This document shows, piece after piece, positions 3,001-59,788 of a DNA stretch of 64,000 nucleotides (the first letter of the stretch is position 1; the number at the start of each line of letters is the position of its first letter). The DNA is from an uncultured Spirochaetia bacterium (GTDB taxonomy: Bacteria; Oederibacteriota; PGYV01; Palsa-1178), in the NCBI GenBank assembly GCA_964443355.1, contig CAYUDX010000014.1, forward strand, positions 17,992-81,991, in the 5' to 3' direction. Both the position numbers and the translations under genes were made by a program. The notes under the pieces were generated by a model. It was not told the origin of the DNA and did no database searches. It worked only from the letters and a program-made list of their open reading frames with translations.

Positions 3001-4041
3001 ACTGCAAACCGCATATTCAATAGAACCATAATATCCCGACTTGGTATTTTCCCACCACAACACTATCGGAAGCAATGATGAAATGCCGACATTTGGGAAC
3101 ATGGAATTATAGCTGTCAGTGGATACCTGGACGGGGGCCGCGCTCAATCCCTGGTCAAGGATCCCGTCGTTGCCCAAATGGTCGCCATAACCCCTGATGA
3201 ATATCTTTCTGTTGCCGCTTCCCGTCCCTTCCTCATATACAATAAAAACATCGCCCAACGAATTAACGGCGATCGAAGGATCATAATCCCCGTTGCCGCC
3301 GGTCGGCGCACCCACGGGCATTCCTGTCGTCTCAACCCATGTTGAATGAACACTGTCCCAGCTTGATATAGTAAGATATACGTTGTTGGCGTAAAAACTG
3401 CTCTTGCTTACCATGTAACATTTATTCCCGAGATATGCCATTTTTCTCTGGCTTGCGAAAGCATCGCTCTCGTTTGACCAAGTTGTTAAAATTGACTCAT
3501 TGCCATAATTCGTTGCAAGTATTGATGTGTTGCCCGTAACCCCCGTATTTATATTCGTATATTTCGCAGACAAGGTATATGAGCCTGTCTGAATCGAGCA
3601 AGTCCTATTGTCAACATAAGCAAGAAATGATTGTTTTAAATTGCTTCCGCCGCCGCCGTTGCAGGCTTCATAATTTATCATGGTATCCGTGCCATAGCAC
3701 GGAAAAGAAGTGATATTGGATGAAGCTATGATAGATTGATTGGACAATTCGTTCGGAAAATAAATCGTCATATTTACAGGATTGTCCCATGCGGTCGTAT
3801 CAATATAAGTATTACCGATGAACGGAAAATACGCGACAGGAAACGCTGAACCCGTGTTGTAATTTATATATTCTCCAAATGGATTGGCCTCGGAATATAT
3901 CTTATTAATAACAACGGTTCCCGACGGCAGCGGTGTTGCGTAACAATTCACCGGTGTTGGCGGCGGCGGAAGAATTGGTGTGGCCTGGATGGAAAAAGAT
4001 AGAACCGGCAAAAGCATGGATAACAATAAGATTTTTTTCAT
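1..4041 (-). CDS. Large secreted protein, 3'-partial (>1347 aa, runs off the window): signal peptide, uncharacterised N-terminal region, Thr/Pro stalk, delta-60-type beta-propeller repeats
   Basis: Not in the ORF track because there is no stop in the window. ATG at 4041 gives [22 protein letters not shown]. The frame was open in every segment I spot-checked, including nt 1-60 ([20 protein letters not shown]). It contains motifs such as [18 protein letters not shown] and [18 protein letters not shown], typical of delta-60 repeats. A consensus promoter lies upstream. Confidence 0.8.
1690..2265 (-). repeat. Thr/Pro/Ser-rich low-complexity stalk (TxTP/TxTx periodicity) inside the partial CDS
   Basis: Translates to [37 protein letters not shown]...; produces the Val-rich antisense ORF 1817..2146. 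Confidence 0.85.
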
Positions 4042-4129: not shown

Positions 4130-4158
4130 ATTATACACATTTGTCCATACATTGTCAA
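4130..4158 (-). promoter_or_regulatory. Perfect sigma-70 consensus promoter
   Basis: Minus strand reads TTGACA-N17(ATGTATGGACAAATGTG)-TATAAT, about 90 nt upstream of the ATG at 4041. Confidence 0.85.
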
Positions 4159-9080: not shown

Positions 9081-9158
9081 TTAATTACCTCTTGAATCAT
9101 TGGCGCGTGAAACCAAACGCCAGATTTGTGGATGTCTTTAATAAGCGTCGCTCTTACT

Positions 9159-9187
9159 ATGATAGCAAATTTTAAAAACCCTGTCCA
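9159..9187 (-). promoter_or_regulatory. Sigma-70 promoter with extended -10 for the GH8 gene
   Basis: TGGACA-N17-TATCAT with TGn before the -10. Confidence 0.6.
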
Positions 9188-9229
9188 CAAAGTAAAACCG
9201 AAAACATCAAAAACTGCTTAACCTGTTTA

Positions 9230-10243
9230 TCACTTTGTGACTATAATGAACTTTTTGGCGACGCTGAGCCCGGCCTGTATGTATACGGGATAAACTCCCT
9301 GCGAAACAACTGCTCCCGCGGCGTTCTGGCCGCACCATGTGGTTTCCCATGTGCCCGTGTCTTTTGACTCATTTAACAGGACCGCCACGACCCTGGCCGC
9401 CTTGTCGTAAATTATTATTTTGACCGTCTCGGGCTGTGCCACCTGCACGCGTATCTTTGCGCACTGGCCTTTGTTTGGATTTATAAGATTGTCGGCGACC
9501 ACGCCTATATCAGTCATTACAACAGTGGGTGTCGCCGTTATTTTATCCGCGTCGGCATCATGTATGGAATTCACGGGCGCCGCCGCTCCTGATATCATAT
9601 TGCCGTTTTCAACCTGGTTTGACGCCGCCGCTGTTTTCGGGGCCTGGCTGTTGGTAATTGCCGGAGCCGCGGAAGCGTAAGAGACTCCGGGAGCTGGCGC
9701 CGGGGCCGCAGCCACAACCGGCGCTGAAACCGCAGGCTGTATCTGTTGCACTGACGCTGCCCGAACTGCGGGCGCGCTTTCTGTCCTTGGCGAGGCGGCC
9801 ACAACCGCAGGTTTTACCGCCTGTTTTGCGTATTTAACCTCAACAGGGGCTTTTGCGGTCATGACGTGTTTTACCGCCGGAACCGGCGCCATTGCAATGT
9901 CTTTTACAGCGCTGGTCGGCCTGTTATATATAATGAAGACGGAAACGAATAATACGAGGGCGAATGACGCGGCATAAGTGAATAAGGGGGCCAGATTCCT
10001 GGATATTTTTACTTTTTGGCCGGAAATCACGGCCATTACCCTTGTTTCAAGGTAATCAGGCGCTTCAACTTTCATCAAAGAGGCCAGTGAGGCCATTTTT
10101 TCAAGGTCAGCGTCATATTGCGCGCATTCGGCGCATGAAGCAATGTGTTCCGCAGCCTTTTTGGCCGTTTCAGCGGAAGCTTCGCCGTCCCTTGTTTCCA
10201 TTATCATCTCTTTGAATTTTTGGCAATCCTTGTGGCCCTTCAT
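9230..10243 (-). CDS. ZAS-type (zf-HC2) membrane anti-sigma factor with Ala/Pro linker and C-terminal FlgD-Ig/T9SS-CTD-like domain
   Basis: HxxxCxxC motif (EHIASCAEC); one TM segment (LFTYAASFALVLFVSVFII); C-terminal IIIYDKAARVV..WCGQNAAGAVVSQGVYPVY..KKFIIVTK. Directly downstream of the ECF sigma gene. ATG 10243 preferred over GTG 10252 from RBS spacing. Confidence 0.8.
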   Translation of the reverse strand: MKGHKDCQKFKEMIMETRDGEASAETAKKAAEHIASCAECAQYDADLEKMASLASLMKVEAPDYLETRVMAVISGQKVKISRNLAPLFTYAASFALVLFVSVFIIYNRPTSAVKDIAMAPVPAVKHVMTAKAPVEVKYAKQAVKPAVVAASPRTESAPAVRAASVQQIQPAVSAPVVAAAPAPAPGVSYASAAPAITNSQAPKTAAASNQVENGNMISGAAAPVNSIHDADADKITATPTVVMTDIGVVADNLINPNKGQCAKIRVQVAQPETVKIIIYDKAARVVAVLLNESKDTGTWETTWCGQNAAGAVVSQGVYPVYIQAGLSVAKKFIIVTK

Positions 10244-10269
10244 TTTTAGCACCTTCCTTTATCGAATAT

Positions 10270-10297
10270 ATAGACAATCCCGGTATTAAAAAGTTTC
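10270..10297 (-). promoter_or_regulatory. ECF (sigmaE/sigmaW-like) promoter between the sigma and anti-sigma genes
   Basis: Minus strand reads GAAACT-N16-GTCTAT, matching the GAACTT/GAAAC-N16-GTCTnn ECF pattern. Confidence 0.6.
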
Positions 10298-10307
10298 GGT
10301 ATATATA

Positions 10308-10889
10308 TCACAGGATGTCGTCCTTTTGCAGTTTTTCACGCAGGTTTTCCCGCGCCCTGAAGAGCTTTGATTTCACGGCCGAGACCGATATCCTGAGCAC
10401 CTGGCCTATTTCCTCGTATGAGAGCCCCTCGACGTCCCGCATCATGATTACCTGCCTCTGTTCGCCGGTCAGCTCGTCTATCCTTTTATACACGGTCTTT
10501 CTCACCTCTTCAGAGGCGTATGATTTATCCGGCTCTTTTTCCTCTTTTTCCTTTAGCCCGTCGACCAGCGAGGGCTTTTCCTCGGCGCCTTCCTCGTAGC
10601 TCTCCTCGGCCATCTGCCCCCTGGCGCGCTGGAGCTGTTTGAGCCTGTTCTTGCACGTGTTAACGGTTATCCTGTATATCCACGTGGAGAGCTTGGAATC
10701 CCCGCGGAAATTTTTCAGGTTGTTGTAAACGGAGACGAATATCTCCTGTGCGGCGTCCTCGGCCTCTTCCTTGTTGCGCAAAAAATTATAGGCGTGGCCG
10801 AACACCACTTTCTTGTATTTCGTGATTATCTCCGCGAAATATTTCGACTCGCCCCTCTTTACCTTTTCTATTATCTCCAGCTCGTCCAT
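10308..10889 (-). CDS. ECF RNA polymerase sigma factor (RpoE/SigW-like)
   Basis: Region 2 EEAEDAAQEIF..FRGDSKLSTWIYRITVN; region 4 EGLSYEEIGQVL..VKSKLFRAR. Confidence 0.93.
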   Translation of the reverse strand: MDELEIIEKVKRGESKYFAEIITKYKKVVFGHAYNFLRNKEEAEDAAQEIFVSVYNNLKNFRGDSKLSTWIYRITVNTCKNRLKQLQRARGQMAEESYEEGAEEKPSLVDGLKEKEEKEPDKSYASEEVRKTVYKRIDELTGEQRQVIMMRDVEGLSYEEIGQVLRISVSAVKSKLFRARENLREKLQKDDIL

Positions 10890-11841: not shown

Positions 11842-12837
11842 TTATACGGAATCTCTTATTATGAGTTCCGGTTCAAAGCTTATTATTTTGCTCTCGTAGG
11901 GTATGGACCCGTCGATCATCCCCATCATCACGTCGAAGGCCTGCATTCCCATCTGCGCGATGGGCTGGCGCACGGTGGTCAGCCCGGGCGAGGTGAGGTT
12001 GGATATGTAGATGTCGTCGTAACCTATGACCGCCATGTCCGAGGGTATCTTTATCCCCATGTCCTTTGCCTGGTCGAGCACTCCTATGGCCGTCACGTCG
12101 CCGGCGGCGCAAAAGACCGAATCCACGTGCGGGCTTTTTTTCAGCAGCAACTTGAGGGATTTTTCGCCCTCCTCGAAATTATAATTCGTGACCCTGATTA
12201 TCTTGTTCTCGTCGTATGGTATGCCGAAATCATTGAGCGCGTCCCTGTAGCCTTTCATGCGCTCCTCGGCGTTGAGCCCCGAGTCTCCTATTATTAGGCC
12301 TATGCTCTTCCTCTTGTTCTTGATGAGGTATTCGGTGGCCATGTAGGCCCCCTTGATGTTCTTGAATTTTACCGTCGGGGCCCCTTCCAGGACCTCTTCA
12401 AGGAACACGACGGGCACGCCTTCCTTTTTGAATTCGGCAAGGAGCTCCCTGTCCATGCGCAGTGATATCACTATGATGCCGTCGGCCCTGCGCTCGTAAA
12501 ATATCCTCTCGAGCATTTCGCGCTCGTTCTCCTCGATGCCCCTCGTGGAATACAATATCAGGTTATACTGGGTGTTCCTCAGGTTGGCCTCGATGCCCTT
12601 GACGGATTCCAGGGCGAAAAGCGAAGCGAAAAACGAGGCGACGACCGCGATGTTGTTGGTCTTGCCCTTCACAAGGCTCCTGCCTATGTAATTCGGATGG
12701 TAGTTCATCTCTTTTATGGCGGCCATGACCAGCTCTTTTGTCTTCTGGGATATCTTCGGGCTGTTGTTGATGACCATGGATACGGTCGCCGGGGTCACCC
12801 CGACCTTTTTCGCGATGTCCTTTATTGTTACTCTCAT
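11842..12837 (-). CDS. LacI-family transcriptional regulator
   Basis: VTIKDIAKKVGVTPATVSMVIN HTH, MNYHPNYIGRSL hinge, periplasmic-binding-protein-like effector domain. Confidence 0.95.
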   Translation of the reverse strand: MRVTIKDIAKKVGVTPATVSMVINNSPKISQKTKELVMAAIKEMNYHPNYIGRSLVKGKTNNIAVVASFFASLFALESVKGIEANLRNTQYNLILYSTRGIEENEREMLERIFYERRADGIIVISLRMDRELLAEFKKEGVPVVFLEEVLEGAPTVKFKNIKGAYMATEYLIKNKRKSIGLIIGDSGLNAEERMKGYRDALNDFGIPYDENKIIRVTNYNFEEGEKSLKLLLKKSPHVDSVFCAAGDVTAIGVLDQAKDMGIKIPSDMAVIGYDDIYISNLTSPGLTTVRQPIAQMGMQAFDVMMGMIDGSIPYESKIISFEPELIIRDSV

Positions 12838-12877: not shown

Positions 12878-14197
12878 TCAACGGGCCTCGGGCAAATTCT
12901 GCATGGACTGGTTCTGGTCAAGCCACGCTTTAAGCTTGGCGTTTCCGGGGTCGAGCTCAAGGGCCTTTGAGTAAGCCCTGTAAGCAAGCTCCCTCCTGCC
13001 GGTATTAAGGAAACATGCGCCCAGCCCCATGTAAGCGGGGGCGTATCCCCTGTATTTTTTTACGCATTCGGCAAATTCCGGGATGGCTTTCCCGAAATCC
13101 AGCTTGTACAGGTAATCATAACCGCGTTTATACGCCTCGATGCCCGCTTTTTTGTCCTCAAAAAAGTGCTTCTCCGACGTCCCCGCGAATTTCCCGGTTA
13201 TGGATATCCTGTTCGAGACGCCGAGGTCGGCGTAAGGCACCATCACGTAATCCAGTTCTATGTTAAGGTCCTTCGACGCGGTCAGCCTGTATCCAAGCCC
13301 GGCCGTGAGCCCTGCCAGCGCGCCAAGGTCCTCGCCGAACTTGTAACCAAGCCTAACCGCTATCGAGTGGTATTTGTTCAGCGTCCAGTATTTCTCGGCC
13401 CCGAGGTGGACGCTCGCAGATTGTTCTATGGGATAATAAAGGATGTCAAGGGCCGCGGTGGTGTCGTTCTCGTTGTAAACAAAGGTCCCTTCATCTGAGA
13501 AAGGAAGCATCAGGTTCTCCATGGAGAACCTGTAACCGAACCCGAGCTTCAGGTCGACCGGAAGCGATGGCCTGTTATTGGCAACCCCGAGGTTCTCGGC
13601 AACAAAGCCGACGGAATAATTTTCATACCTTGGATAAAAAAACGAGCCGATATTGAACCCGAACCCGCCGCCGCCGTCGGAGACTATCTTTTCGGATATA
13701 AGGTTTGCCGACAGCCCGAAGGAGAGGTCGGATACCGCGCTGTCATTGCCAATGATGTCGGATAATTTCTTGGCGTATGCAAGCGTTATGTCAAGGTCGC
13801 TCGCGGTCACGGAATTCGTGGTCAGTTCATAGTCCCCTGTGCCGGGGGCTTCTATTGTCTGGGTAAGGCTGCCGCCGTTGACAAAAACGCTGTAGGCCGC
13901 AAGCGTGCCGAAGCCCTGGATGGGCAGGGCGTAGGCCAGGTATTCATAATTGACGTCAAGCAGCCAGGCGGAATGCATGAGGCATATCTGGTTGCGGGTG
14001 AGCTGTGAGAGGCCCGCCGGGTTCCAGTAAACGGCATTGACGTCGTCGGCCACTCCCACGAACGCCTCGCCCATTCCCGCGGGCCTTGCGCCCTCGGAAA
14101 GCTTGAGGAAATTGGCGGAGGTCTCGCCCGCGCCAAGGACCGTGGAATAAACCGCGAATAAAACAAACGCGGCGAATAAAATGGCTTTTTTTCGCAT
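12878..14197 (-). CDS. PorV/PorQ-family beta-barrel with C-terminal TPR extension (439 aa; start corrected from 14410)
   Basis: AGGAG RBS before MRKKAILFAAF; canonical FLKLSEGARPAGMGEAF..DDVNAVYWNPAGL; barrel ends near ISITGKF, followed by TPR (AYMGLGACF..AYSKALELDP). Confidence 0.8.
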   Translation of the reverse strand: MRKKAILFAAFVLFAVYSTVLGAGETSANFLKLSEGARPAGMGEAFVGVADDVNAVYWNPAGLSQLTRNQICLMHSAWLLDVNYEYLAYALPIQGFGTLAAYSVFVNGGSLTQTIEAPGTGDYELTTNSVTASDLDITLAYAKKLSDIIGNDSAVSDLSFGLSANLISEKIVSDGGGGFGFNIGSFFYPRYENYSVGFVAENLGVANNRPSLPVDLKLGFGYRFSMENLMLPFSDEGTFVYNENDTTAALDILYYPIEQSASVHLGAEKYWTLNKYHSIAVRLGYKFGEDLGALAGLTAGLGYRLTASKDLNIELDYVMVPYADLGVSNRISITGKFAGTSEKHFFEDKKAGIEAYKRGYDYLYKLDFGKAIPEFAECVKKYRGYAPAYMGLGACFLNTGRRELAYRAYSKALELDPGNAKLKAWLDQNQSMQNLPEAR

Positions 14198-14231
14198 CAA
14201 CCCGTTTTCTCCTGATTTGATTTTATGCTTT

Positions 14232-14260
14232 ATCTTACCAGTAAAAAAACCTAAAATCAA
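14232..14260 (-). promoter_or_regulatory. Sigma-70 promoter of the PorV-TPR/LacI/PorV/ECF cluster
   Basis: TTGATT-N17-TAAGAT; the -35 overlaps an inverted repeat TAAAATC-aattg-GATTTTA (14252-14270). Confidence 0.5.
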
Positions 14261-14304
14261 TTGGATTTTAACCGCTGGATCAAACACATACCCCGCCGGG
14301 GTTT

Positions 14305-14823
14305 TTAATAATGTATTACCGAAAATATTTTGTTGGGGGAGAGTTTTTCCCTGCCCTTTAAAAAATCCAGCTCTATTACGAACGCCAGCTCGCTTATTGC
14401 GGCGCCGCATTTTTCAACGAGTTTTACAACGGCCTGCGCAGTGCCGCCGGTGGCCAGGACGTCGTCTATTATAAGCACATTGTCCCCTTTTGAAAGGGCG
14501 TCGGCGTGTATCTCAAGCGAGTCCGTGCCGTATTCAAGGGCGTATTCCTGGGAATAAACCTTCCTGGGCAGCTTGCCCGGCTTGCGCACCGGTATGAGTG
14601 AGGCCTTAAGCTTGTAGGCCAGCGGCGCGCCGAGAAGGAACCCGCGCGCTTCCATGCACACCACGGCGTCTATCTTTTTTCCCTTGTATCTTTTGGCGAG
14701 AGTGTCGATGAGCTCGGCAAAAAGCTTTTTATCCTTGAGCACCGGGGTAAAATCCTTGAAAATGACCCCTTTTTTCGGGAAATCAGGAACGTCCAGAACC
14801 GCTTTTTTCAATTCTTTTTCCAT
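14305..14823 (-). CDS. apt: Adenine phosphoribosyltransferase
   Basis: VPDFPKKGVIFKD, EARGF, VRKPGKLP, EYGTD, PRPP-binding IIDDVLATGGT. Confidence 0.97.
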   Translation of the reverse strand: MEKELKKAVLDVPDFPKKGVIFKDFTPVLKDKKLFAELIDTLAKRYKGKKIDAVVCMEARGFLLGAPLAYKLKASLIPVRKPGKLPRKVYSQEYALEYGTDSLEIHADALSKGDNVLIIDDVLATGGTAQAVVKLVEKCGAAISELAFVIELDFLKGREKLSPNKIFSVIHY

Positions 14824-17921: not shown

Positions 17922-18070
17922 CGCAAACAATGTCAATCCAACCAGTCGTTTTACTTCACATATCAAAATTGCTTGCGTCCGTGAAAATCCTGATATTTTC
18001 ATCTATCTATTTTTCACGGACTACCAACAACCTGGAGCGCGTACGTTTGTCTTTGCTTATCATAAAAAAA

Positions 18071-50387: not shown

Positions 50388-51392
50388 TTATATCCTGAAG
50401 TATAAACCTATCTTCTGGCTGCTTCCAAGCTCGCCATAGGGCGAATAAACGTAATCCAGGGAATACATTGTGGCCTGGCCGTTCCTTAACCCTATCCCGG
50501 CGCCCGCGGCCAATCCGCTGTAAAGCCTTGAAGACGGGTTAAAATCATATCCCGCCCTGAGAGCGATGTTAAAATCCCCGAAATTGTGCATGTATTCAAA
50601 TCCGGTCCTCAAATTGAACGAGTCGGCCACGGAAACGTCCGCATCCAGGCTGTAACGGAACCTGTTGGAAAGGCCGAAAATATTAAGCACCTGCGTAGAG
50701 GCGCCCGCGGCCACTATCATCGGTGTCAGACCCGACCCGAATCCGATCCCAAGGTTCCTTATGTCGAACCCCAGGGAAATCTTGTTCCATATGGTCTCGC
50801 CGCGGTTCTGCATAAAATCGGCCTCTTCCAGGACTATGTTGTATATGGCGCCTATATCCGCGGAGAGCGCCATGTCGCTGTAATCAGGCCCGAGGTTCTC
50901 GCCCGAAAATTTTACGGTAGCCCCCGCTTCGACATTTTTTGTAAAATCATTATAAAGCAGTTTTGATAATTTGACGCCGTAGCCGACACCGACAAGAAAA
51001 TCCGACGCGGATACCGTCGGCCCGGTGCCGTCGTATTGCCCCAGCGCGGTTTCATTGGTCCTCACCAGCGAGCCGCCGTTCAAATATTTCACAACCGCGC
51101 CCAGAGTCCCTATATCCGGGTTGCCGTGGGCGTAATAAAAAGAATCATAGAATATCCCCATCAAATAAAGGTCCTGGATGAAGAGCATATCGGTGTTCTC
51201 TATGGTGGACAGACCGGCGGGGTTCATGTCAAAGGCCTCAAGGTCGTCGCTTATTGAATTATACGCCCCGGCCATTGCCTGTGATTTTATGCCCGAGGGC
51301 ACTTTAAGCAGGTCGATGGCCCCCTGCCCAGCGTCCGCAAAAACCTGTGACACGGCGAAAAGCGCCGCGATAATCAATATGGCTTTTTTCAT
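50388..51392 (-). CDS. PorV/PorQ-family outer-membrane beta-barrel
   Basis: Signal peptide; LLKVPSGIKSQAMAGAY..DDLEAFDMNPAGL; C-terminal LDYVYSPYGELGSSQKIGLYFRI; starts 10 nt after the stop of the giant CTD protein. Confidence 0.8.
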   Translation of the reverse strand: MKKAILIIAALFAVSQVFADAGQGAIDLLKVPSGIKSQAMAGAYNSISDDLEAFDMNPAGLSTIENTDMLFIQDLYLMGIFYDSFYYAHGNPDIGTLGAVVKYLNGGSLVRTNETALGQYDGTGPTVSASDFLVGVGYGVKLSKLLYNDFTKNVEAGATVKFSGENLGPDYSDMALSADIGAIYNIVLEEADFMQNRGETIWNKISLGFDIRNLGIGFGSGLTPMIVAAGASTQVLNIFGLSNRFRYSLDADVSVADSFNLRTGFEYMHNFGDFNIALRAGYDFNPSSRLYSGLAAGAGIGLRNGQATMYSLDYVYSPYGELGSSQKIGLYFRI

Positions 51393-51402
51393 GTTTTGTC
51401 CT

Positions 51403-54400
51403 TTACTTGATTATGTATATCTTGCCCGTGTATTTTCCCGCTCCGGTGGTGACAATATACATGTAAATGCCCGCAGCGCATTTTTCTCCGTTCATGTTCG
51501 TGCCGTTCCATTCTATCCTGCCGGAGACACCGTCGAATTCCTTGACCTTATAACCCTGTATGTCGTATATTTCCACTGTGGAATTTGGCGGCATGAAGTC
51601 GAATTTCAGGGTGCCGTTGTAAGCCTTTGTGGGAGAATACGGGTTAGGGTAAACCGCTATCATATCCGGCGTCGGGGATGCGGTCGGCGTTATTGTGGAA
51701 GTCGTCGTTATCGTGGGCGTATTGGTGAAGGTCGGCGATGTCGTGTAAGTCGGCGATATTGTATGCGTCCTGGTGATGGTCGGCGTCTGGGTTATTGTGG
51801 CTGTTTCGGTTTCTGTGACCGTCTCGGTAACCGTGGGCGTGCCCGTCTTTGTGACGGATGGCGTGGCCGTGAATGTCGATGTGGCCGTATATGTGGGCGA
51901 TATGGTGTAGGTATTTGTGAAAGTGAACGTCGGCGTTATTGTGGGCGTCACCGTTGCCGTCCACGGCGGTGTTATCGTGGAAGTCGGAGTTACGGTCGGG
52001 GTATCCGTAAATGTCGGGCTGACCGAGAAGGTCGGGCTTATCGTGAAAGTCGGCGTCACGCTTGGCGTCGCCGTGAATGTCGGCGTCGCCGTGAATGTCG
52101 GCGTCGCAGTATAAGTGGGCGTGACCGTCTGCGTGACCGTCTTTGTGACCGTGAACGTATTGGTTGATGTTTCCGTAATTGTCGGGGTTACGGTCGGGGT
52201 CACGGTTTGCGTGTCTGTCGCCGTAATGGTCGGCGTGACCGTCTGCGTCACCGTCTCGGTGTCCGTCTGTGTAACTGTCTTGGTCACCGTCTGCGTGACC
52301 GTTATGGTTATAGTAGGCGTAACCGTTTGTGTCACCGTCTCGGTGTCCGTCTGCGTTACGGTCTTGGTTACCGTCTGCGTAACCGTTATGGTAATTGTCG
52401 GGGTAACAGTCTGCGTTACAGTCTGCGTCACGGTGGCGGTCACTGTCTTTGTTACCGTCGGAGTCACCGTCTGTGTCACTGTCGGCGTCACAGTCTGGGT
52501 AACCGTCTGCGTAACCGTCTGGGTAACCGTCTTTGTGACCGTGGGTGTTACCGTCTGCGTAACCGTCGGGGTTATCGTTTTTGTGACCGTGGGCGTGAAG
52601 GTAAATGTAAGCGGATCTCCCACGAGAGTATTATTGCTGACCCCGGTCTTTGTCGCATCGAGGGTGTCTTTAGCTGTTATATTCTGCAAACCGTCCGTTC
52701 CGTATTTGATCACTGTGAACTGGTGCACGCCGTTGTCTCCCGCCACAAAAGTATAATCGGACGGCAGTGTCGCAAGCGGGTCCGTAGATGTGAAATGGAC
52801 CGTCCCGGTGTAATTTGTCACCGTCTGGTTATAAGCGTCCTTTGCCCTCACTATTATTGTATAGAAGGTTATGTAAGTGCCCCATGACCTGAACGCCGTG
52901 GACGGTGCCGAAATGGCAAACGTTATTACAGGCTGTGACATTATTATGGCCGACGACGTCACTCCCGAGGGATTGGACATTGTCGCGGTGACTATATGGC
53001 CGATACCGGAGGATATCGAAAGCGTCAGTATTGTGCTCAACTGACCTGCCGCGTTGGAATATCCGCTGATAGGATTGACCGAGCCGTAATTTGAATCAAA
53101 AGATATTGGCACATTGGCTATGGCCTGCGCCGTGCCGTTCTGGTCCGTTATATATGCCATTACCGAATATGTTGATCCGGCAGGCGCGAAAATAGTGCCC
53201 GAAGATGCAGGCGGTGTTATGTGCAGGAAATATCCGGTAGTAACGTTAAGCGTCTCTGTAGCCGATGTGTACCCGGTTCCGGATATTACAAATGTATACG
53301 TGCCGGGTGTGTGTGATTTAATATAAATAAGGCAATAGCCGCTTGAATTTACAGTAAACGGCAATGCCGTATTCAGCCCGCTCCATGTCACCCCGTCAAG
53401 GGAGTACTGCACGTTTGCGTTTGCCGCAATTGTCAGCGAAGTATCACCTGATTTTGGCTGGGCATTGAAACCGCCCGCGTCCTGCAGATTAACGCCGAGG
53501 CTTCCTATAATATCCGCTCCCAGGGCCATCGGGTTAGGGTTCGGCACTATCTGCGTCGCTGTCCCTGATATATAAATAATTACCGTTGTGCCGAGAACCC
53601 CCGCCGAGTTGACCACGCAATAATTCATCTGGTCGGTAGAGGCTCCGGTCGTAAAAGTTGTCGTCACATGGCCGTTTGCGTCCGTATTGCCCGATGCCGG
53701 CGCCACAGTCGGAGCCCCGCCGCTTGCTTTCGGGACGAACGTTATCGCCGTGTTTGTTATAGGATTGCCGTAGGCATCGGTCAGGAGCGCGGTTATTGTA
53801 AGCGGCGTGCTTATAGGCGCCGAATATGCGCTTGCCGTGGCCGACAAAAGGGCCGCGACATTTGATATGGTGGTGGCGTATGCCTTGCCGTCCGTAAGGG
53901 CCGCCGCCGTATCATGCGCCGTAATTGTCACGCTGTTGCCGTTCTTGGTATCCATATAATAAAGCGTGGCCTTGCCGCTGGCAAGGGTTACGTTTACCGT
54001 AGTGAACCAGTTGTTCTGGTCGGTTGAGAACTGCATGGTTGCGGAAGCGGAAGAGAGCTTCACGACAGCGTTGGAATTGGCGCTGTTGCCCAGGCTGTCC
54101 TTGGCCTGCACTATTATGGTCGCGGTGTTTCCGGCCATATTTGTCTGCGTTGCCGGTATTATGGAAAGCGAGGAAGCGGGCGTATCGTTTACCGTGATGG
54201 CAGCCGTCCCCGTGGTAAGCCCGGTTACCGCGGCCGATACCGTCGAATTTCCATCCACTGAATCCCTTACAAGGATATTGTTGACCTGCGTTCCAGGCAG
54301 GTATACCGTTGTCAGCCATGTATTTCCATTATCCTGGCTGAACTGCATCGTTCCCGACGTGGATGTCATTGTTATATTCTGCGCATACGATATATTATTT

Positions 54401-57400
54401 CCGTTAACATCCTGTATGCTCACCTGTATCGACCCGGGCGAGTTGGATTGAAGGCTGAGATAGTTCGGTATTATGGTCACTTTGCTCGCGGCTGTTGCCG
54501 TAAAATTAACCGTCGTTATCCTGCTCATATGGCTCAAAGTAGCGGTTATCTGCGCCGAGCCTTCAAGGGTTGATTTTATTGTAGCCGAAGCATTTCCGTT
54601 AACATCAGTTACAGCCCTTGTGTTTCCCACCAGCAGATTTTGCGGGGTTATGATGTCGCCCGGACGGTTCGATGTAAAATCAATCAGGGCCCCGAAAACA
54701 GGGTTTCCGCCTGGGCTTGTCACATGCGCCGTTATTGTCGCCGTAGCCACACCGTTTGCCAGCACCGGAGAGCCCACGACGCTTAATGTCATATCCTTTA
54801 ATATAAAGACCCAGTTGTTCGTGGGGATTACGGTTCCGCCGATCCATGAAGCGCCCGCCCCTACAGTGGATGATACCGGGTTCGGAACCCAGCCGGTCAC
54901 TCCAAGAATATTATTGTTCATGAATATTGATTTTATGGTTGTGCCGCTTGAATTTGTAAACTGAATATTGTCATAAATGGCGTTGAATGTTCCCTGGTTG
55001 TTGGAAGGCGCGCCGTTCTGTCCGAGGTTTCCGGTATCCTGTGACAGGAAGAACTCCAGGGAATTATGGTTCGCAAGCCCTGCCGGCGAGAAATCAAATT
55101 TCCTGTGATACCACTGCCCTCTCGCGTAAGCGGATATGTCGGTCGACGGATGTATCCTTATATTATTCTGGTCCCTTATATAAGGAGTAAAATCCCTTAA
55201 TTGACCTCCCGGATTCCATGTCCCGTTATTTTCCACGGAGCAATAGAAATCAGCGCTGTAATCCGGTATAAATACGTCGAATTGAAGGAAAGAACTTGCC
55301 GGGACGGTAAATGCTATACCTGCGTTATTTGTAATGCTTATATAAGCGTAGCCGTACGCGTCCTGGGTCGGCAGATATGAAGTCAACAGGAGCGGCTGGC
55401 TGTATTGCGAAGCGCTGGAAGAGGCCACTATAGGTCCGCTTGTCCCGCTCTTTCCCGCGCCCGCGTCTGTGGCTGTAATGGTCCAGGTCCCGGCGGTGTT
55501 AAGGATAGCTGAAAGTATCCTGGTGCCGCCGTCCGTCAGCTGGAATGTATATGAAGCCGGAGCCATTGTCCCGGAATTGTCGGTGGTCGTTAAAGCGACG
55601 AGGTCGGTAAAATTACTTATGATATTGCCGTACTGGTCGACTGCCGTGACCGCGTAGTTGAAGCTTATGCCCGTGTTCGCGGTTGCAGGCGCCACAACCT
55701 GGAACGTGGATAACGCCCCCGCATTGACATTAATGCCGTTGCTGGTGCCTTTTATTGAAGGAGTCACGTCGTCATGGGCCGATATCGTTTGGATCCCTTC
55801 CGTCGTCAATGTTACATAAAAACTCCTTGTGCCGTTATTTGCAAGCGTAAAGGCCGTATCCGGCGGAAGGACCGTAAACGCACCGGTATCGGTGGATGTG
55901 AATCCGACGGTGCCTGCGTAAGTTGTTACCACATTATTATAAGAATCCTTTGCCGTTACGGTTATATATATATATTGTCCCGCCGAGCATGAAGCGGGCG
56001 CCTGTATGGTAAAGCTCACCGCGCTGCCCGTGGTAAGGTTTACCACCGCGGTCCCGGTCGCAAGAATGCCGGCGTCGTCCGTGGCTATGATGGCCTTTGA
56101 ACCCGTGTTATTGATCTGAACCGATACGGTCGTCACGCCGTTCTCCGCCCCGGTAAAGACATAAACGAGCGGTGTTATGGAATATGATGACGCGTTGGAA
56201 CTCATGTCAACCTGCCCGGTGTATCCGGTAAATACCAGATTGCCATATGAGAGCGGCTCCATTGCCTGAACCTGCGCGGTAAAAGGAACGCCCGCGACCT
56301 GGGCCGGGGCCGCTATTACCTGGAAGTGGTCCGCGTACGCCGTGGCCGTGACCGTCGGGGTCGCCGTCGGAGTGTCCGTTGGCGTTACCGTCTGCGTCAC
56401 CGTCTGCGTTGTGGATGCGGTCACCGTAGGCGTTGCCGTCTGTGTCACCGTAGGAGTCACCGTAGGCGTCACCGTCTGTGTATCAGTCTGGGTAACACTT
56501 GGCGTAACTGTAAATGTCGGCGTGTTCGTCGGGGTAAAAGTAGGCGTGTCGGTTGGAGTTACCGTCTGTGTCACCGTGGGCGTTACCGTCTGCGTTACTG
56601 TCTGCGTCACTGTTGGCGTCACTGTTGGCGTCACCGTCTGCGTCACCGTCTGCGTTACCGTCCGGGTAACAGTGGGCGTCACAGTGGGTGTCACCGTCTC
56701 GGTCACCGTGGGCGTAACTGTCTGTGTCACCGTCTGCGTCACTGTCTGCGTAACGCTCGGCGTTATCGTTGGAGTGACCGTCTCGGTCACCGTGGGCGTC
56801 ACCGTCTGTGTCACCGTCTGTGTTACTGTCTGTGTCACGCTCGGCGTTATTGTTGGAGTGACCGTCTGCGTTACCGTCTGTGTCACTGTAGGCGTCACTG
56901 TTTCCGTATCAGTCTGCGTCACAGTGGGCGTCACTGTCGGCGTCACCGTCTGAGTTACAGTCTTCGTAACCGTCGGCGTCCATGTCGGCGTGTCTGTCTG
57001 CGTCACAGTGAATGTCGGGGTGTTGGTCGGAGTGACCGTGGGCGTCGATGTCGGGGTCACAGTCTGCGTTACGGTCGGAGTCACCGTCTCCGTATCGGTC
57101 GGAGTCACCGACGGCGTGACGGTATAAGTCGGCGTCGCCGTGGAAGTCATTGTTATTGTCGGGGTGGCCGTGAATGTTTTTGTTATGGTGAACGTCGGGG
57201 TGACCGTAAAGGTCCACGCCGGGTTCCTTGTAAAATCTATCTGGAGGTTGGATACGTAAGGGGAAACAAAATTGTTGTAAGTGGTGAGTATTGCGCGCCA
57301 TAATATCTCGGTGCCGGTGTTTGCTATCCCGATGCCCGACGTCACAGGCGTCCATGTGGAGCCGTTCGTGGACAGGTAATAGGCAATCGATGTATTGGCC

Positions 57401-59574
57401 GGAAGGGTCGACGAATTGACCGTAAGCGTCACGTTGCCTGTATACCCGTATGTGTAGGTGTCTATTGCCGTCGACTGCCCGGTCTGGGGCGAATTAAACG
57501 AGGCGCCGTACCTGTTTATCTTCGCCAGGTCCCCGCACATGAGCCAGTAGCTGCCGTTATAAGCAACTGAATTTATCGCCCTGGCCCCCCAGTTCACCAG
57601 GTTGGTCGTCTGGTCCGTAAATGTCTCGGAGCCGCTCACGACGGAAGAATAAATGTAGCCAAGCCCCCCGCCCATGAACCACTGTGTCTGCGCCGAATTA
57701 TAATCGATGGAATAAATGCCGTTGGTGCCGAAATCCGTGACGTTGCCGGACTTGTTGGTCAGCGTGCCAAGCGAGTAATCGTAATCGGCCATTTTACCGC
57801 TGTCGCATCCGAGCCTTACCTTGTTGACCCCGTCCCATTTTATGGTATTGACCGAATATGTCCCGCCCAATTTTGATGTTAATGTTGCGTTCAATACGGT
57901 GGTCAGCGTGGAGTTTCCGTCATAAATGGCGAAAGAACCCGTGGTCCCGCCGAGGAACCATTCGTTCCAGGAAGCCATGTATTCGATGGCTTTCACTGTG
58001 TCCGTGGCCCCGAAAGAAGCCAGCACGCTTACATTCGTGAAAGTATTTCCGTCGGCCGATTTCGCGAGGTGCGCGTCGGTCCCGCCAAAAACCCACTGAT
58101 TGTTCGCCCATTTGATGGATGTTATGCTTTCCGTTCCCCAGTTGATATAGCTCGCGCCCGACCTCTGGGTAAATGTCGTCCCGTCGTATTTTGCCAGGTT
58201 TCCGGAGGCGCCTCCTATCATAAAGTAGCCGCCGGTGGGATTGTATGCCACGCAAAGGACGTTGGCCGCGCCCCAGTTAAGGCCGGTCCTTAAGTCCGTA
58301 AAAGTTGTCCCGTCGTATTTATTAATTGAGCCCTGTTCTCCCACAATTATCCAGTATGCTCCCGCGGGGTTGTAAACCGCCCCTTTGATATTATAAAAAC
58401 CGAAGTCCTTGATGCTCGTGCCCAGGTCGGTGTTCGTCGGGGAATTCACCCCGCCGGTCCTCTTCATAAGCCGGCCGTTCCTGCCTCCCAGAAGATTTGT
58501 CCCGCCCGCGGTCGCGGCTATCGCCCATATAGGGTCAACGTCGAATGTTCCGGTCATATTCGCCTGCGGATAAAAAGTCGTCCCGTCAAATGTATAAAGG
58601 CTGGTGCTTGAGCCGTTGTTGCCACCGATGAGCCAGTAAGAGCCGTTGTATTTTATTGACCATACCGTTGTGAATGAAACCGAAGCGGTCCTGTCGGTAA
58701 AAGTGGATCCGTTATACGTGGCCACTTTCCCGCCGCCTCCTCCTATCATCCAGTATGTCCCGTTCCAGTCGAGAGAATATATGTCGTATGTCCCGTTCCA
58801 TACCCCGGCCCCCGCAAGCGTCGCGGAAAGGTCCGTCCATGTGGATGCCCCGTCGTATTTGCAGATCTTGCCGTTGGTCCCAACGATGAGCCAGTAGGCC
58901 CCGTTCCATCCTATCGCCCTGACCTCGTCCGTGGTGGCAAAATTTCCGCCGCCGCTTCCGCCCGCCGTGGTCAATCCGGTCTTAAGGTCGGTGAAGGTCG
59001 TCCCGTCGTATTTATTGAGGGACGCGCTCGTGCCGCCGATGAGCCAGTAGGAAGGCGCGCCGCTCTTCCAGGCCATCGCCCTGACATTTCCGGTAAAATT
59101 TACCATGCTTGGTTTTTTATCGGTCCAGGTGCTTACTCCGTCCCACTGGTTAAGGCTCGGGCCGTCTCCGCCCACAAGCCAGTATGTGCCGTTGGCCTTT
59201 ACGGCCGAGACGCTGTTGGTTCCGAAATTAATAAGGGAAAGTGTAAGGTTGGTGAAAAAAGTCCCGTCGTATTTATTTATCTTGCCGCCGTCGCCGCCGA
59301 TTAGCCAGATGGCGTTTGCGTTGTCATAATCAATGCACCTGACCCCCCCGCCCCAGTCTATTACCCCGGTGGTTTCCGCAAATTGGTTGGCGGTCGTAAG
59401 GCCGAGCCTGTTGTTTATGGTATAATCCCAGTTCGCCGTGGTGGCTACCGTGTTTTCAAAGGTGTTCGTGGTAAAATTTTCGGTAAAGGTTACGGCTCCG
59501 GCCTGGACGGCCGCCAGGAATGTGAATAACGCCGATAGCATTAACACTGACAGGGTCTTTTTTGATATCACCAC
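51403..59574 (-). CDS. Giant surface protein/adhesin (about 2723 aa): signal peptide, 14 propeller-like repeats, Thr-rich stalk, multiple Ig-like domains and a jelly-roll-like domain, second stalk, T9SS/FlgD-like CTD
   Basis: AAGGAG RBS 6 nt before GTG 59574; repeats YW(L/M)IGG..(I/L)NKYDGTTFTD; Big-like repeats ITVTAKDSYNNVVTTYAGTVGFTSTD; CTD AVYPNPY..VEIYDIQGYKV..WNGTN..AAGIYMY..GKIYIIK. Confidence 0.88.
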   Translation of the reverse strand: MVISKKTLSVLMLSALFTFLAAVQAGAVTFTENFTTNTFENTVATTANWDYTINNRLGLTTANQFAETTGVIDWGGGVRCIDYDNANAIWLIGGDGGKINKYDGTFFTNLTLSLINFGTNSVSAVKANGTYWLVGGDGPSLNQWDGVSTWTDKKPSMVNFTGNVRAMAWKSGAPSYWLIGGTSASLNKYDGTTFTDLKTGLTTAGGSGGGNFATTDEVRAIGWNGAYWLIVGTNGKICKYDGASTWTDLSATLAGAGVWNGTYDIYSLDWNGTYWMIGGGGGKVATYNGSTFTDRTASVSFTTVWSIKYNGSYWLIGGNNGSSTSLYTFDGTTFYPQANMTGTFDVDPIWAIAATAGGTNLLGGRNGRLMKRTGGVNSPTNTDLGTSIKDFGFYNIKGAVYNPAGAYWIIVGEQGSINKYDGTTFTDLRTGLNWGAANVLCVAYNPTGGYFMIGGASGNLAKYDGTTFTQRSGASYINWGTESITSIKWANNQWVFGGTDAHLAKSADGNTFTNVSVLASFGATDTVKAIEYMASWNEWFLGGTTGSFAIYDGNSTLTTVLNATLTSKLGGTYSVNTIKWDGVNKVRLGCDSGKMADYDYSLGTLTNKSGNVTDFGTNGIYSIDYNSAQTQWFMGGGLGYIYSSVVSGSETFTDQTTNLVNWGARAINSVAYNGSYWLMCGDLAKINRYGASFNSPQTGQSTAIDTYTYGYTGNVTLTVNSSTLPANTSIAYYLSTNGSTWTPVTSGIGIANTGTEILWRAILTTYNNFVSPYVSNLQIDFTRNPAWTFTVTPTFTITKTFTATPTITMTSTATPTYTVTPSVTPTDTETVTPTVTQTVTPTSTPTVTPTNTPTFTVTQTDTPTWTPTVTKTVTQTVTPTVTPTVTQTDTETVTPTVTQTVTQTVTPTITPSVTQTVTQTVTQTVTPTVTETVTPTITPSVTQTVTQTVTQTVTPTVTETVTPTVTPTVTRTVTQTVTQTVTPTVTPTVTQTVTQTVTPTVTQTVTPTDTPTFTPTNTPTFTVTPSVTQTDTQTVTPTVTPTVTQTATPTVTASTTQTVTQTVTPTDTPTATPTVTATAYADHFQVIAAPAQVAGVPFTAQVQAMEPLSYGNLVFTGYTGQVDMSSNASSYSITPLVYVFTGAENGVTTVSVQINNTGSKAIIATDDAGILATGTAVVNLTTGSAVSFTIQAPASCSAGQYIYITVTAKDSYNNVVTTYAGTVGFTSTDTGAFTVLPPDTAFTLANNGTRSFYVTLTTEGIQTISAHDDVTPSIKGTSNGINVNAGALSTFQVVAPATANTGISFNYAVTAVDQYGNIISNFTDLVALTTTDNSGTMAPASYTFQLTDGGTRILSAILNTAGTWTITATDAGAGKSGTSGPIVASSSASQYSQPLLLTSYLPTQDAYGYAYISITNNAGIAFTVPASSFLQFDVFIPDYSADFYCSVENNGTWNPGGQLRDFTPYIRDQNNIRIHPSTDISAYARGQWYHRKFDFSPAGLANHNSLEFFLSQDTGNLGQNGAPSNNQGTFNAIYDNIQFTNSSGTTIKSIFMNNNILGVTGWVPNPVSSTVGAGASWIGGTVIPTNNWVFILKDMTLSVVGSPVLANGVATATITAHVTSPGGNPVFGALIDFTSNRPGDIITPQNLLVGNTRAVTDVNGNASATIKSTLEGSAQITATLSHMSRITTVNFTATAASKVTIIPNYLSLQSNSPGSIQVSIQDVNGNNISYAQNITMTSTSGTMQFSQDNGNTWLTTVYLPGTQVNNILVRDSVDGNSTVSAAVTGLTTGTAAITVNDTPASSLSIIPATQTNMAGNTATIIVQAKDSLGNSANSNAVVKLSSASATMQFSTDQNNWFTTVNVTLASGKATLYYMDTKNGNSVTITAHDTAAALTDGKAYATTISNVAALLSATASAYSAPISTPLTITALLTDAYGNPITNTAITFVPKASGGAPTVAPASGNTDANGHVTTTFTTGASTDQMNYCVVNSAGVLGTTVIIYISGTATQIVPNPNPMALGADIIGSLGVNLQDAGGFNAQPKSGDTSLTIAANANVQYSLDGVTWSGLNTALPFTVNSSGYCLIYIKSHTPGTYTFVISGTGYTSATETLNVTTGYFLHITPPASSGTIFAPAGSTYSVMAYITDQNGTAQAIANVPISFDSNYGSVNPISGYSNAAGQLSTILTLSISSGIGHIVTATMSNPSGVTSSAIIMSQPVITFAISAPSTAFRSWGTYITFYTIIVRAKDAYNQTVTNYTGTVHFTSTDPLATLPSDYTFVAGDNGVHQFTVIKYGTDGLQNITAKDTLDATKTGVSNNTLVGDPLTFTFTPTVTKTITPTVTQTVTPTVTKTVTQTVTQTVTQTVTPTVTQTVTPTVTKTVTATVTQTVTQTVTPTITITVTQTVTKTVTQTDTETVTQTVTPTITITVTQTVTKTVTQTDTETVTQTVTPTITATDTQTVTPTVTPTITETSTNTFTVTKTVTQTVTPTYTATPTFTATPTFTATPSVTPTFTISPTFSVSPTFTDTPTVTPTSTITPPWTATVTPTITPTFTFTNTYTISPTYTATSTFTATPSVTKTGTPTVTETVTETETATITQTPTITRTHTISPTYTTSPTFTNTPTITTTSTITPTASPTPDMIAVYPNPYSPTKAYNGTLKFDFMPPNSTVEIYDIQGYKVKEFDGVSGRIEWNGTNMNGEKCAAGIYMYIVTTGAGKYTGKIYIIK
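51665..52610 (-). repeat. Second Thr/Val/Pro/Gln stalk of the giant protein (12-nt TVTP/TVTQ units; includes a 28-aa higher-order duplication)
   Basis: TVTQTVTPTITITVTQTVTKTVTQTDTE occurs twice in tandem. Confidence 0.88.
56335..57220 (-). repeat. First Thr/Val/Pro/Gln stalk of the giant protein (includes a 28-aa higher-order duplication)
   Basis: TVTPTITPSVTQTVTQTVTQTVTPTVTE occurs twice in tandem; source of antisense ORFs 56326..57303 and 56342..56953. Confidence 0.88.
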
Positions 59575-59788
59575 AAGCGTCTCCTTGTAATTATTCCTCA
59601 CCTTTACAGTATTAATAGTATCACAAAATAAATCAAATTCAACCGATAAATGGGAGTATTTTCCAATATCACCTTATTATGTAGGTTTTAACGTATATAT
59701 GGGAATGCGCAAATTCCATTTTCACGCTATAATTTTAGGCTGTTTTTTATCATATGCCAATTGACATGGATGTCCGGGGACGTCTATA

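Follow-up and report, generated by a model that had tools for sequence, protein, structure and literature searches.

A gene for a putative anti-sigma factor ending in a domain of the kind that tags proteins for export was identified in a 64,000-nucleotide stretch of DNA, referred to here as the window (positions 17,992 to 81,991 of contig CAYUDX010000014.1, assembly GCA_964443355.1, uncultured Spirochaetia bacterium). The gene follows that of an extracytoplasmic function (ECF) sigma factor and lies close to a gene for an outer-membrane barrel of the PorV/PorQ family. By sequence comparison, the C-terminal domain (CTD) of the anti-sigma factor is a member, in terminal form, of the family of tags found on secreted cargo proteins, including tags for type IX secretion (by the T9SS). 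An anti-sigma factor with a cargo tag is a new anatomy for ECF sigma/anti-sigma signalling and is well supported; the mechanism that we infer from it is held less firmly. On balance, we lean slightly towards the explanation that the periplasmic end of the anti-sigma factor is a copy of an export-tag CTD which docks on a PorV-like partner, and that the export or anchoring status of this partner controls the sigma factor. All window features of the anti-sigma cluster are on the minus strand, and coordinates are positions in the window.

The window protein is, from its sequence, a zinc-binding anti-sigma factor (ZAS, class I) paired with an ECF sigma factor, its zinc ligands being predicted. The anti-sigma gene is co-oriented with the sigma gene and lies directly 3' of it, with a gap of 55 bp; it was found directly downstream of a co-oriented sigma gene in every related locus that includes the upstream flank. 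Homologues begin at the ATG at 10243, which gives a product of 337 aa. The HxxxCxxC motif (HIASCAEC) was located at nt 10124-10147 within the pattern C-x25-HxxxCxxC, and the C/H/C/C ligands were invariant among 57 anti-sigma relatives. The zf-HC2 model (PF13490) scored 21.8 bits on the window protein against a cut-off of 22.2 bits, which homologues pass, and the RsrA model scored 28.4 bits. At E <= 0.01, 30 of the 57 relatives were matched by zf-HC2 and 35 by NF052375, 'anti-sigma factor'. Structure prediction with AlphaFold2 (AF2) gave N-terminal helices at residues 7-21, 27-39, 41-59 and 68-76, with a predicted local distance difference test score (pLDDT) of about 85, and a seven-strand beta-sandwich at residues 250-340 with a pLDDT of about 90. 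A Kyte-Doolittle peak was present at the place of the transmembrane helix in 69/69 family members. No Pfam or NCBIfam match at E <= 0.1 was obtained for a FecR domain (PF04773) or RsgI_N in the anti-sigma factor. The ZAS motif, single transmembrane helix, Ala/Pro linker of about 140 aa and C-terminal domain described in the initial annotation were thus all found in place. The sigma factor had RpoE/SigW-like models as its best equivalogs, with scores under their cut-offs.

The C-terminal domain was compared with curated families and with the tails of secreted proteins. FlgD_ig (PF13860) scored 27.7 bits on the whole anti-sigma factor and 30.6 bits on the domain alone, both above the cut-off of 27 bits. 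Full-length, sub-threshold matches of 14.6 bits each were obtained with Por_Secre_tail (PF18962, cut-off 27 bits) and CHU_C, and TIGR04183 (cut-off 23 bits) gave no match at E <= 10. A hidden Markov model (HMM) was built from cargo only: related loci supplied 13 secreted proteins, of which the last 100 aa were used. Its top match in the window was the anti-sigma factor, at 70.4 bits, followed by the tails of two secreted window proteins, a giant adhesin (23.7 bits) and a GH8 glycoside hydrolase (16.5 bits). Profile alignment by hhalign, over some 91 columns, related the cargo tags to the anti-sigma family with a probability of 99.9% (E 3.8e-36) and to the window's own clade with 99.6% (E 9e-25); the window domain and the GH8 tail were aligned with a probability of 59%. 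Among the 57 family members, FlgD_ig matched 55, CHU_C 34 and TIGR04183 19 (E <= 0.01; best 1e-8), and the PorU and PorZ tails were matched by 14 and 12, respectively. Invariant lysines were found among close relatives at K333 and K340. In type-A CTDs, a near-invariant and functionally important lysine close to the C-terminus contacts PorV (PMC10994853).

A narrow HMM made from ten close homologues had given E = 0.48 for the GH8 tail and left the adhesin tail undetected. The conclusion of no relation to cargo tails, which this model alone would imply, was overturned by the wider profiles. Structural unrelatedness to cargo CTDs had been named beforehand as the result that would speak against a sorting signal; what was found was full-length homology, a C-terminal position and a conserved Lys-rich last strand. 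The idea of a sorting signal holds as far as cargo-tag homology goes, and fails at the curated T9SS type-A thresholds in the window. The proposed likeness to the CTDs of the neighbours is borne out for the cargo-tag family and is weak for the GH8 and adhesin tails themselves. At its other end, the anti-sigma factor has a cytoplasmic domain and a membrane anchor in place of the cleavable signal peptide usual for tag-bearing cargo. Searches of the Protein Data Bank with Foldseek ranked FlgD first, PorZ 7th and PorU 34th for the window domain, the other matches being generic Ig/Fn3 domains. FlgD structures were the top matches in both fold and sequence searches, and Foldseek cannot separate FlgD_ig from T9SS CTDs for this model.

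An exhaustive profile search with the ten close homologues as query returned 21,515 proteins at E <= 0.001, of which 161 were retrieved. The full architecture was present in 69 of these 161, a count that rests on the proteins retrieved, with a single transmembrane helix and, in 64/69, the HxxxCxxC motif. The linker was 106-173 aa long (median 128) in the 69 members. In 69/69 the domain ended 0-2 aa before the stop, and the last residue was K or R in 62/69, in most cases Lys. Almost no further members were added by a word-indexed search with a 57-sequence profile, and two more only by a search with a CHU_C-tailed variant; a profile search of genome contigs with 9 sequences gave three loci. Database names of the members were 'hypothetical protein', 'anti-sigma factor RsiW' and 'gliding motility-associated C-terminal domain-containing protein'. 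The other retrieved proteins fell into two groups, secreted proteins with a single such domain at the very C-terminus, ending ...KKIVVVK, and giants with 5-15 internal copies. Internal copies mostly stop at positions 80-88 of the 93 profile positions, and 6 of about 370 reach position 91. The anti-sigma domain is the terminal, tag-type version; internal FlgD_ig repeats are almost always without the last strand. P0020, P0025, P0029 and about 40 other proteins of 0.5-5.3 thousand residues carry 4-15 tandem internal FlgD_ig copies, and many such giants end in ...NPFxP, as though truncated where the next copy starts.

The linker is variable in the family except for one feature, a hinge about 20 aa before the domain (window residues ~232-246) with the pattern (V/F)(S/A)AA(K/E)x(T/E)TPxP, present in the window as ...ADADKITATPT. 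The hinge, 'AA-x-(K/E)-x-TP', is a candidate cleavage or recognition site. Its conservation and small residues would suit an explanation in which the tag is a substrate of a PorU-like C-terminal signal peptidase/sortase or of a motor, its removal or extraction being the site-1 event, as in a membrane-tethered analogue of FlgM export. This proposal draws on the same evidence as docking on a PorV-like partner, of which it is a special case and not an independent competitor. We regard it as unlikely, the cleavage site being guessed and no PorU, SprA or motor genes having been seen in the window or the compared loci.

The gene order around the pair was compared in the window and in loci L001-L019. 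In the window, a six-gene run comprises a PorV-family barrel with TPR repeats, a LacI-family repressor, a second barrel, the ECF sigma factor, the anti-sigma factor and, after 149 bp, the GH8 enzyme (Table 1). The pair is co-oriented and directly 3' of the second barrel gene, in agreement with the initial annotation. This barrel is not a PorV or PorQ orthologue (28.7 bits against a cut-off of 250 for NF033710, and 70.3 bits against 220 for NF033711). The NF033709 barrels of the window and related loci scored from 28.7 to 88.8 bits with these PorV and PorQ equivalog models and are family members only; with NF033709 itself (cut-off 90 bits), barrels in related loci scored 110-157 bits. Orthologues of the second barrel hold the same position in L001-L004, L007 and L008. 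From its position, it is proposed as the docking partner of the anti-sigma CTD. No usable fold was obtained when AF2 was run on the PorV-like protein with the three window paralogues aligned (pLDDT 46.6).

Table 1. Features of the anti-sigma cluster and of a related gene pair in the window
Feature	Position	Strand	Details
PorV/PorQ-family barrel with C-terminal TPR repeats	12878..14410	-	NF033709 137.4 bits; TPR_1/TPR_2; first gene of the six-gene cluster
LacI-family repressor	11842..12837	-	Pfam LacI 73 bits, Peripla_BP_1/3; also in L001, L002, L004, L007, L008
PorV/PorQ-family barrel, 311 aa	10900..11835	-	NF033709 99.6 bits; gap of 10 bp to the sigma gene
ECF (group 4) sigma factor	10308..10889	-	193 aa; Sigma70_r2 65 bits, r4_2 62 bits, TIGR02937 106 bits
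Anti-sigma factor	9230..10252	-	340 aa counted from GTG
Cytoplasmic anti-sigma domain	10013..10243	-	aa ~4-80; four helices; predicted zinc ligands C10, H36, C40, C43
Single transmembrane helix	9923..9991	-	aa ~88-110; AF2 helix 88-109; Kyte-Doolittle maximum 2.4
Periplasmic low-complexity Ala/Pro/Val/Lys linker	9512..9922	-	aa ~111-247, ~137 aa; AF2 pLDDT <50
C-terminal cargo-type domain	9230..9511	-	aa 248-340 and stop; predicted seven-strand Ig-like sandwich; ends KKFIIVTK
Sigma-70-like promoter of GH8	9159..9187	-	TGGACA-17-TATCAT with extended TG; no ECF-type promoter found in the same intergenic region
Secreted GH8 glycoside hydrolase, 1598 aa	4284..9080	-	GH8 139 bits, CIA30 64, CBM_11 42; last gene of the cluster
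Paralogous cargo and barrel pair, no regulator	50388..59601	-	adhesin 51403-59601, then barrel 50388-51392

Lineages were counted as distinct when they had less than 50% identity to each other and readable flanks (n=12). In 12/12 of them, sigma factor, anti-sigma factor and a PorV-family barrel were encoded on one strand, and anti-sigma homologues down to about 20% identity were all encoded with a PorV/PorQ-family barrel. Homologues free of such an association, the other outcome named in advance as unfavourable, did not turn up in the survey. One to three C-terminally tagged proteins were encoded in 11/12 lineages, the exception being L015, where the contig ends after the barrel. In the window's clade (L001-L009; 37-89% identity; metagenome-assembled genomes (MAGs) of Goldbacteria), the same six-gene cluster was found in differing outside contexts, with GH8 following the anti-sigma gene in L001-L009. 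Distant relatives, 18-25% identical overall to the window anti-sigma factor, have another order: sigma factor, anti-sigma factor and PorV-family barrel in L010, L012 and L014-L016, followed in L010, L012, L014 and L016 by one to three large tagged proteins. Two tagged proteins precede the barrel in L011, and in L017-L019 a barrel fused to OmpA or beta-helix modules is located after the tagged protein. Some barrels of the clusters stand alone, and others carry fused TPR, OmpA or beta-helix modules. The upstream flanks of eight loci with a downstream barrel (L010-L012, L014, L016-L019) gave no matches to PorV. Outside the window's clade, cargo tags and the anti-sigma factor's own tag are alike in type; in the window's clade, GH8 has a divergent tag.

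Some further features of these loci were recorded. The fused barrels (L017 11935-13980, L018 17817-20213, L019 10723-12693) carry OmpA peptidoglycan-binding or beta-helix modules, and in L013 a separate protein (197-1360) has FlgD_ig/CHU_C-like and OmpA domains; by analogy, the barrel/OmpA arrangement in L013 and L017-L019 recalls the PorP-PorE complex. Giant cargo proteins share a module right before the tag, ...GYGDIxxIVVTGTDxCGxxGxSxGTYTK..., with no Pfam or NCBIfam match (L012 12109-18880, L014 12160-16101, L016 15739-20274, L011 11571-13697, L018 10991-17620). The 255-bp spacer between barrel and sigma gene in L008 (8877-9130) is full of GC-rich palindromes, e.g. GGGAACGGTCTTAGACCGTTCCC, and looks like repetitive extragenic palindromic DNA. 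L014 and L002 are in one MAG assembly, so that at least two such modules are present in that genome. This assembly (CAZMGF01, GCA_964565765.1) is called Spirochaetia; an identical protein elsewhere at NCBI is labelled Candidatus Goldiibacteriota, and the Spirochaetia label looks wrong. FCPU426 and Goldbacteria form one phylum (PMC7031533).

The kind of cargo varied from cluster to cluster (GH8, PQQ propeller, SBBP, CLIPPER, Kelch and unknown proteins) and the anti-sigma domain was constant, which argues against a substrate-specific ligand sensor. Such a sensor would be an ordinary Ig-like periplasmic domain responding, like RsgI, to a soluble signal such as beta-glucan oligosaccharides released by GH8, with the PorV-like genes present merely as part of the regulated operon. 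It would fit the cluster of the window's clade, which has GH8, CBM11-like modules and a LacI sugar repressor, and it would fit the difference between the window anti-sigma tail and that of its own GH8. Glycans or proteins are, moreover, frequent ligands of FlgD_ig and Ig folds, and the fold matches were generic. Nevertheless, the domain is also kept where the neighbouring cargo is unrelated to glycans (PQQ propellers, Kelch, SBBP and unknown proteins, for instance). Its homology to cargo tags is full-length and takes in the Lys-rich last strand, which internal Ig repeats are missing, and family scans of the window anti-sigma factor found no signatures of carbohydrate-binding modules (CBMs), PA14 or RsgI_N. 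A sensor of this kind is therefore considered improbable.

Promoter motifs in relatives, among them Goldbacteria/FCPU426, pointed to genes that the sigma factor probably controls. The motif AAATAnnTGGAACTTTTTT-N-TCTGTCATAG (GGAAC-N16-[CT]TG[TA]C) closely precedes the sigma gene in five loci (L010, L012 and L014-L016), and in L012 and L014-L016 each downstream cargo gene is closely preceded by it as well; of the ten matches to the strict pattern in the five loci, nine lie at these positions. A paired variant (TGTAACCTTTT...GCGTTTAAT) was present in L011, one copy ahead of the sigma gene and the other immediately past the anti-sigma stop. ECF-type motifs were also found before a cargo gene in L013 and, in L001, L007 and L009, before a second GH8 gene, which the window does not have at the same position. 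L001 and L007 hold this GH8 gene with its ECF promoter where the window has a DUF5122 gene, which indicates that the region has been rearranged. Judged by the motif, control of cargo genes by the sigma factor is well supported in the relatives.

These promoters also bear on whether the domain has a signalling role at all. It could be a structural tether at the envelope sites of the barrel, or a leftover from gene fusion, with a sigma factor that answers general envelope stress. In the window itself no ECF promoter or identifiable target was found, and the sigma factor is most like stress sigma factors of the RpoE/SigW type, as would be expected in that case. Against it, at least 69 proteins, with identities down to about 20%, keep the domain, its place at the C-terminus and the length of the linker, which is not expected of a relic, and dedicated promoters precede the neighbouring cargo genes in relatives. 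We give such a passive role little credence.

The strongest sign that the anti-sigma tail serves to meet a barrel came from L013, in which a CHU_C tail on the anti-sigma factor is matched by a PorP/SprF-like barrel. The anti-sigma factor of this locus, P0093, has a CHU_C tail resembling type B; its NCBI name is that of a 'gliding motility-associated C-terminal domain' protein. Its gene comes after those of a sigma factor and of a barrel whose matches are PorP/SprF-like, namely a precomputed match to PF11751 and scores of 61 bits with TIGR03519 and 70 bits with NF033709, the latter two below cut-off. A neighbouring Kelch/Big_1 cargo protein has the same tail type as P0093, with identical last eight residues, KGTVVLAK. 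The type-B tags of Bacteroidota are served by cognate PorP/SprF shuttles encoded alongside (PMC12618676, PMC9143113).

A mechanism consistent with these results would run as follows. The N-terminal domain would hold the sigma factor at the inner membrane, and the unstructured linker of 106-173 aa would let the CTD reach the outer membrane, where it would dock on the PorV/PorQ-like barrel of the cluster, either free or inside a T9SS-like translocon. Depending on whether the barrel is free or occupied by cargo, or on a transport pull on the tethered tag, the anti-sigma factor would stay intact or be cleaved. The freed sigma factor would then transcribe its own operon, including the barrel in clusters of the FCPU426 type, and the genes for tagged cargo. 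Three parts of this scheme are inferred: binding of the CTD to the barrel, the direction in which regulation works and the release of the sigma factor by proteolysis. In trapped T9SS translocons the tag lies on the PorV loops inside the SprA pore, and the step that requires energy is the release of carrier and substrate (PMC10994853). Periplasmic PorM and PorN are further binding partners of CTDs (bioRxiv 10.1101/483123). Given such binding sites and a flexible leash of at least 106 aa, engagement of the tag would be possible without export of the protein. The initial statement that a CTD tethered to the inner membrane cannot be exported intact is thus no strict bar to engagement, since the linker could span the periplasm. 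A more specific version, secretion-signal mimicry, in which a PorV-type carrier and a T9SS-like translocon or motor tugs or clips the leashed tag and so sets off intramembrane proteolysis and sigma release, is put forward tentatively, at appreciably less than even chances.

Several results weigh against docking on a PorV-like partner. The window domain scored below the curated T9SS type-A and type-B thresholds, FlgD_ig alone being passed, and narrowly, and the fold search returned generic Ig/Fn3 domains with FlgD at the head. Co-variation of tails was weak in clusters of the FlgD_ig type, where the anti-sigma tail found its best match among the tails of its own neighbours in 3/10 (permutation p = 0.055); a z-sum p of 0.007 was driven by L013. 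The GH8 tail of the window ranked last of 15 cargo tails in similarity to the anti-sigma tail. In the solved translocon the tag is at the extracellular loops of PorV, so that a tethered tag must enter the pore. T9SS is generally placed only in Bacteroidota or the Fibrobacterota-Chlorobiota-Bacteroidota (FCB) group (PMC7463736, PMC12398890). Family scans found no SprA/Sov, PorK/L/M/N (GldK-N) or PorU in the 64-kb window or the compared loci, and no site-1 protease is encoded near the anti-sigma factor. A search of the whole window for the ECF-type motif gave intragenic chance matches only, and the window GH8 has a sigma-70-like promoter in a cluster that holds a LacI gene.

These promoter elements and the LacI gene hint at a sugar-dependent repression of GH8 that would be independent of the ECF sigma factor. 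In the promoter region (9081-9229, minus strand), as in L001 and L007, an 8-bp inverted repeat (TTTGTGGA / TCCACAAA) flanks the promoter. An imperfect palindrome, AGCGACGCT, lies just 3' of the -10 element, from which no LacI operator is claimed, and a conserved GC hairpin (TGGCG...CGCCA) is located ahead of the ribosome binding site. The GH8 protein carries CBM11/CIA30-like modules, Pro/Thr linkers and its divergent C-terminal tag, with sub-threshold scores of 18.5 bits (TIGR04183), 19.5 bits (PF18962) and 19 bits (FlgD_ig). At the other end of the cluster, the mechanical open reading frame of the PorV-TPR gene overlaps an adenine phosphoribosyltransferase gene at 14305-14823 (minus strand). 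Three observations make the internal ATG at 14197 the probable true start (439 aa, signal peptide included): the orthologues' length of 438-446 aa, a signal peptide that begins at residue 72 of the long frame, and the overlap of that frame with the phosphoribosyltransferase gene. A sigma-70-like element, TTGATT-17-TAAGAT, was found upstream of this gene and is conserved in L001, L004, L007 and L008.

Elsewhere in the window, the adhesin (2732 aa, Big_1/invasin-like) ends in a genuine T9SS type-A tail (TIGR04183 36.7 bits, PF18962 27.9 bits, CHU_C 32.1 bits). A third PorV/PorQ-like barrel, directly 3' of the adhesin gene, scored 79.9 bits with NF033709, below the cut-off. Adhesin and barrel are encoded without a regulator, and cargo genes thus seem to bring their own barrel. 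Positions 1-4041 (minus strand) encode a DUF5122 beta-propeller repeat protein that has a signal peptide, is longer than 1347 aa and extends past the window edge. Between this gene and GH8 are a GC-rich hairpin with a T run, resembling a terminator, and then a perfect 12/12 sigma-70 promoter at 4130-4158 (minus strand). Tad/Flp-type pilus genes were found at 22522-25469 (minus strand), among them a secretin (PF00263, 157 bits) and a T2SSE ATPase of 648 aa with a ParA/CpaE-like domain fused at its N-terminus.

The nearest known logic is that of FlgM and sigma-28, in which an anti-sigma factor carries a recognition signal for a secretion machine whose state sets sigma activity. FlgM is soluble and cytoplasmic and is exported whole by a type III system, whereas the window anti-sigma factor is an inner-membrane-anchored member of the ZAS/ECF class with a folded, T9SS-like CTD in the periplasm. 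In FecA-FecR-FecI and the SusC-like systems of Bacteroides polysaccharide utilization loci, a single-pass anti-sigma factor likewise meets a co-encoded outer-membrane barrel and controls an ECF sigma factor for neighbouring genes. In the present case, however, there is no FecR, TonB-dependent transducer or STN domain, the barrel is PorV/PorQ (FadL-like) and the contact module is a cargo-type tag. RsgI/SigI of Clostridium thermocellum is similar in having several paralogous modules per genome beside polysaccharide-degrading enzymes, and in an anti-sigma C-terminus that borrows a module also present on enzymes. The families differ (SigI/RsgI_N versus ECF/ZAS), and the borrowed module is a substrate-binding CBM there and an export or anchoring tag here.

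Within T9SS, cargo genes adjoin genes for tag-recognising barrels in the shuttle and anchor pairs (type-B CTD with PorP/SprF; PorU-PorV, PorZ-PorQ; PMC12618676, PMC9143113), and the combinations of barrel and OmpA or TPR in the present clusters are like PorP-PorE. Those clusters are without a reported sigma/anti-sigma pair. The hosts here are Goldbacteria/FCPU426 and unclassified MAGs, not Bacteroidota, and the barrels are not PorV, PorQ or PorP orthologues. In Porphyromonas gingivalis, the PorV-binding T9SS-CTD protein PorA feeds through PorXY into SigP, an ECF sigma factor controlling secretion genes (PMC7712824). PorA is a secreted surface protein acting by a two-component route, and SigP has no known anti-sigma factor, whereas here the CTD is within the anti-sigma factor itself. 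PorA-PorXY-SigP was the sole reported case found in the literature search of a tagged protein influencing T9SS gene expression. A full-text literature search gave no description of a zf-HC2 anti-sigma factor with a T9SS-like or FlgD_ig tail, in keeping with the initial remark that no feedback sensor of this type was known.

A tag on the anti-sigma factor and a PorV-family neighbour suggest an undescribed coupling of gene expression to protein export. Little is known so far about how bacteria that make very large surface enzymes and adhesins match this synthesis to the capacity for T9SS-type export and anchoring; with an export tag on the anti-sigma factor, feedback would be direct and simple. 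Such a protein would also bring in a new class of anti-sigma sensor domains, defined by mimicry and not by binding. The family is compact (about 330 aa) and modular, with a recognisable promoter motif, which would make a heterologous reporter test easy, and a secretion-load sensor could be made from it. If secretion-signal mimicry is true, each cassette of cargo and carrier would be transcribed only in proportion to free export or anchoring capacity, and Goldbacteria/FCPU426 would have a working T9SS-like pathway outside the FCB group, with many dedicated PorV paralogues. One cellulose degrader with experimental support is known from this phylum (PMC7031533). Judging from gene order, Goldbacteria/FCPU426 appear to arrange glycoside hydrolases and adhesins as self-regulated cassettes of sigma factor, anti-sigma factor, carrier and cargo.

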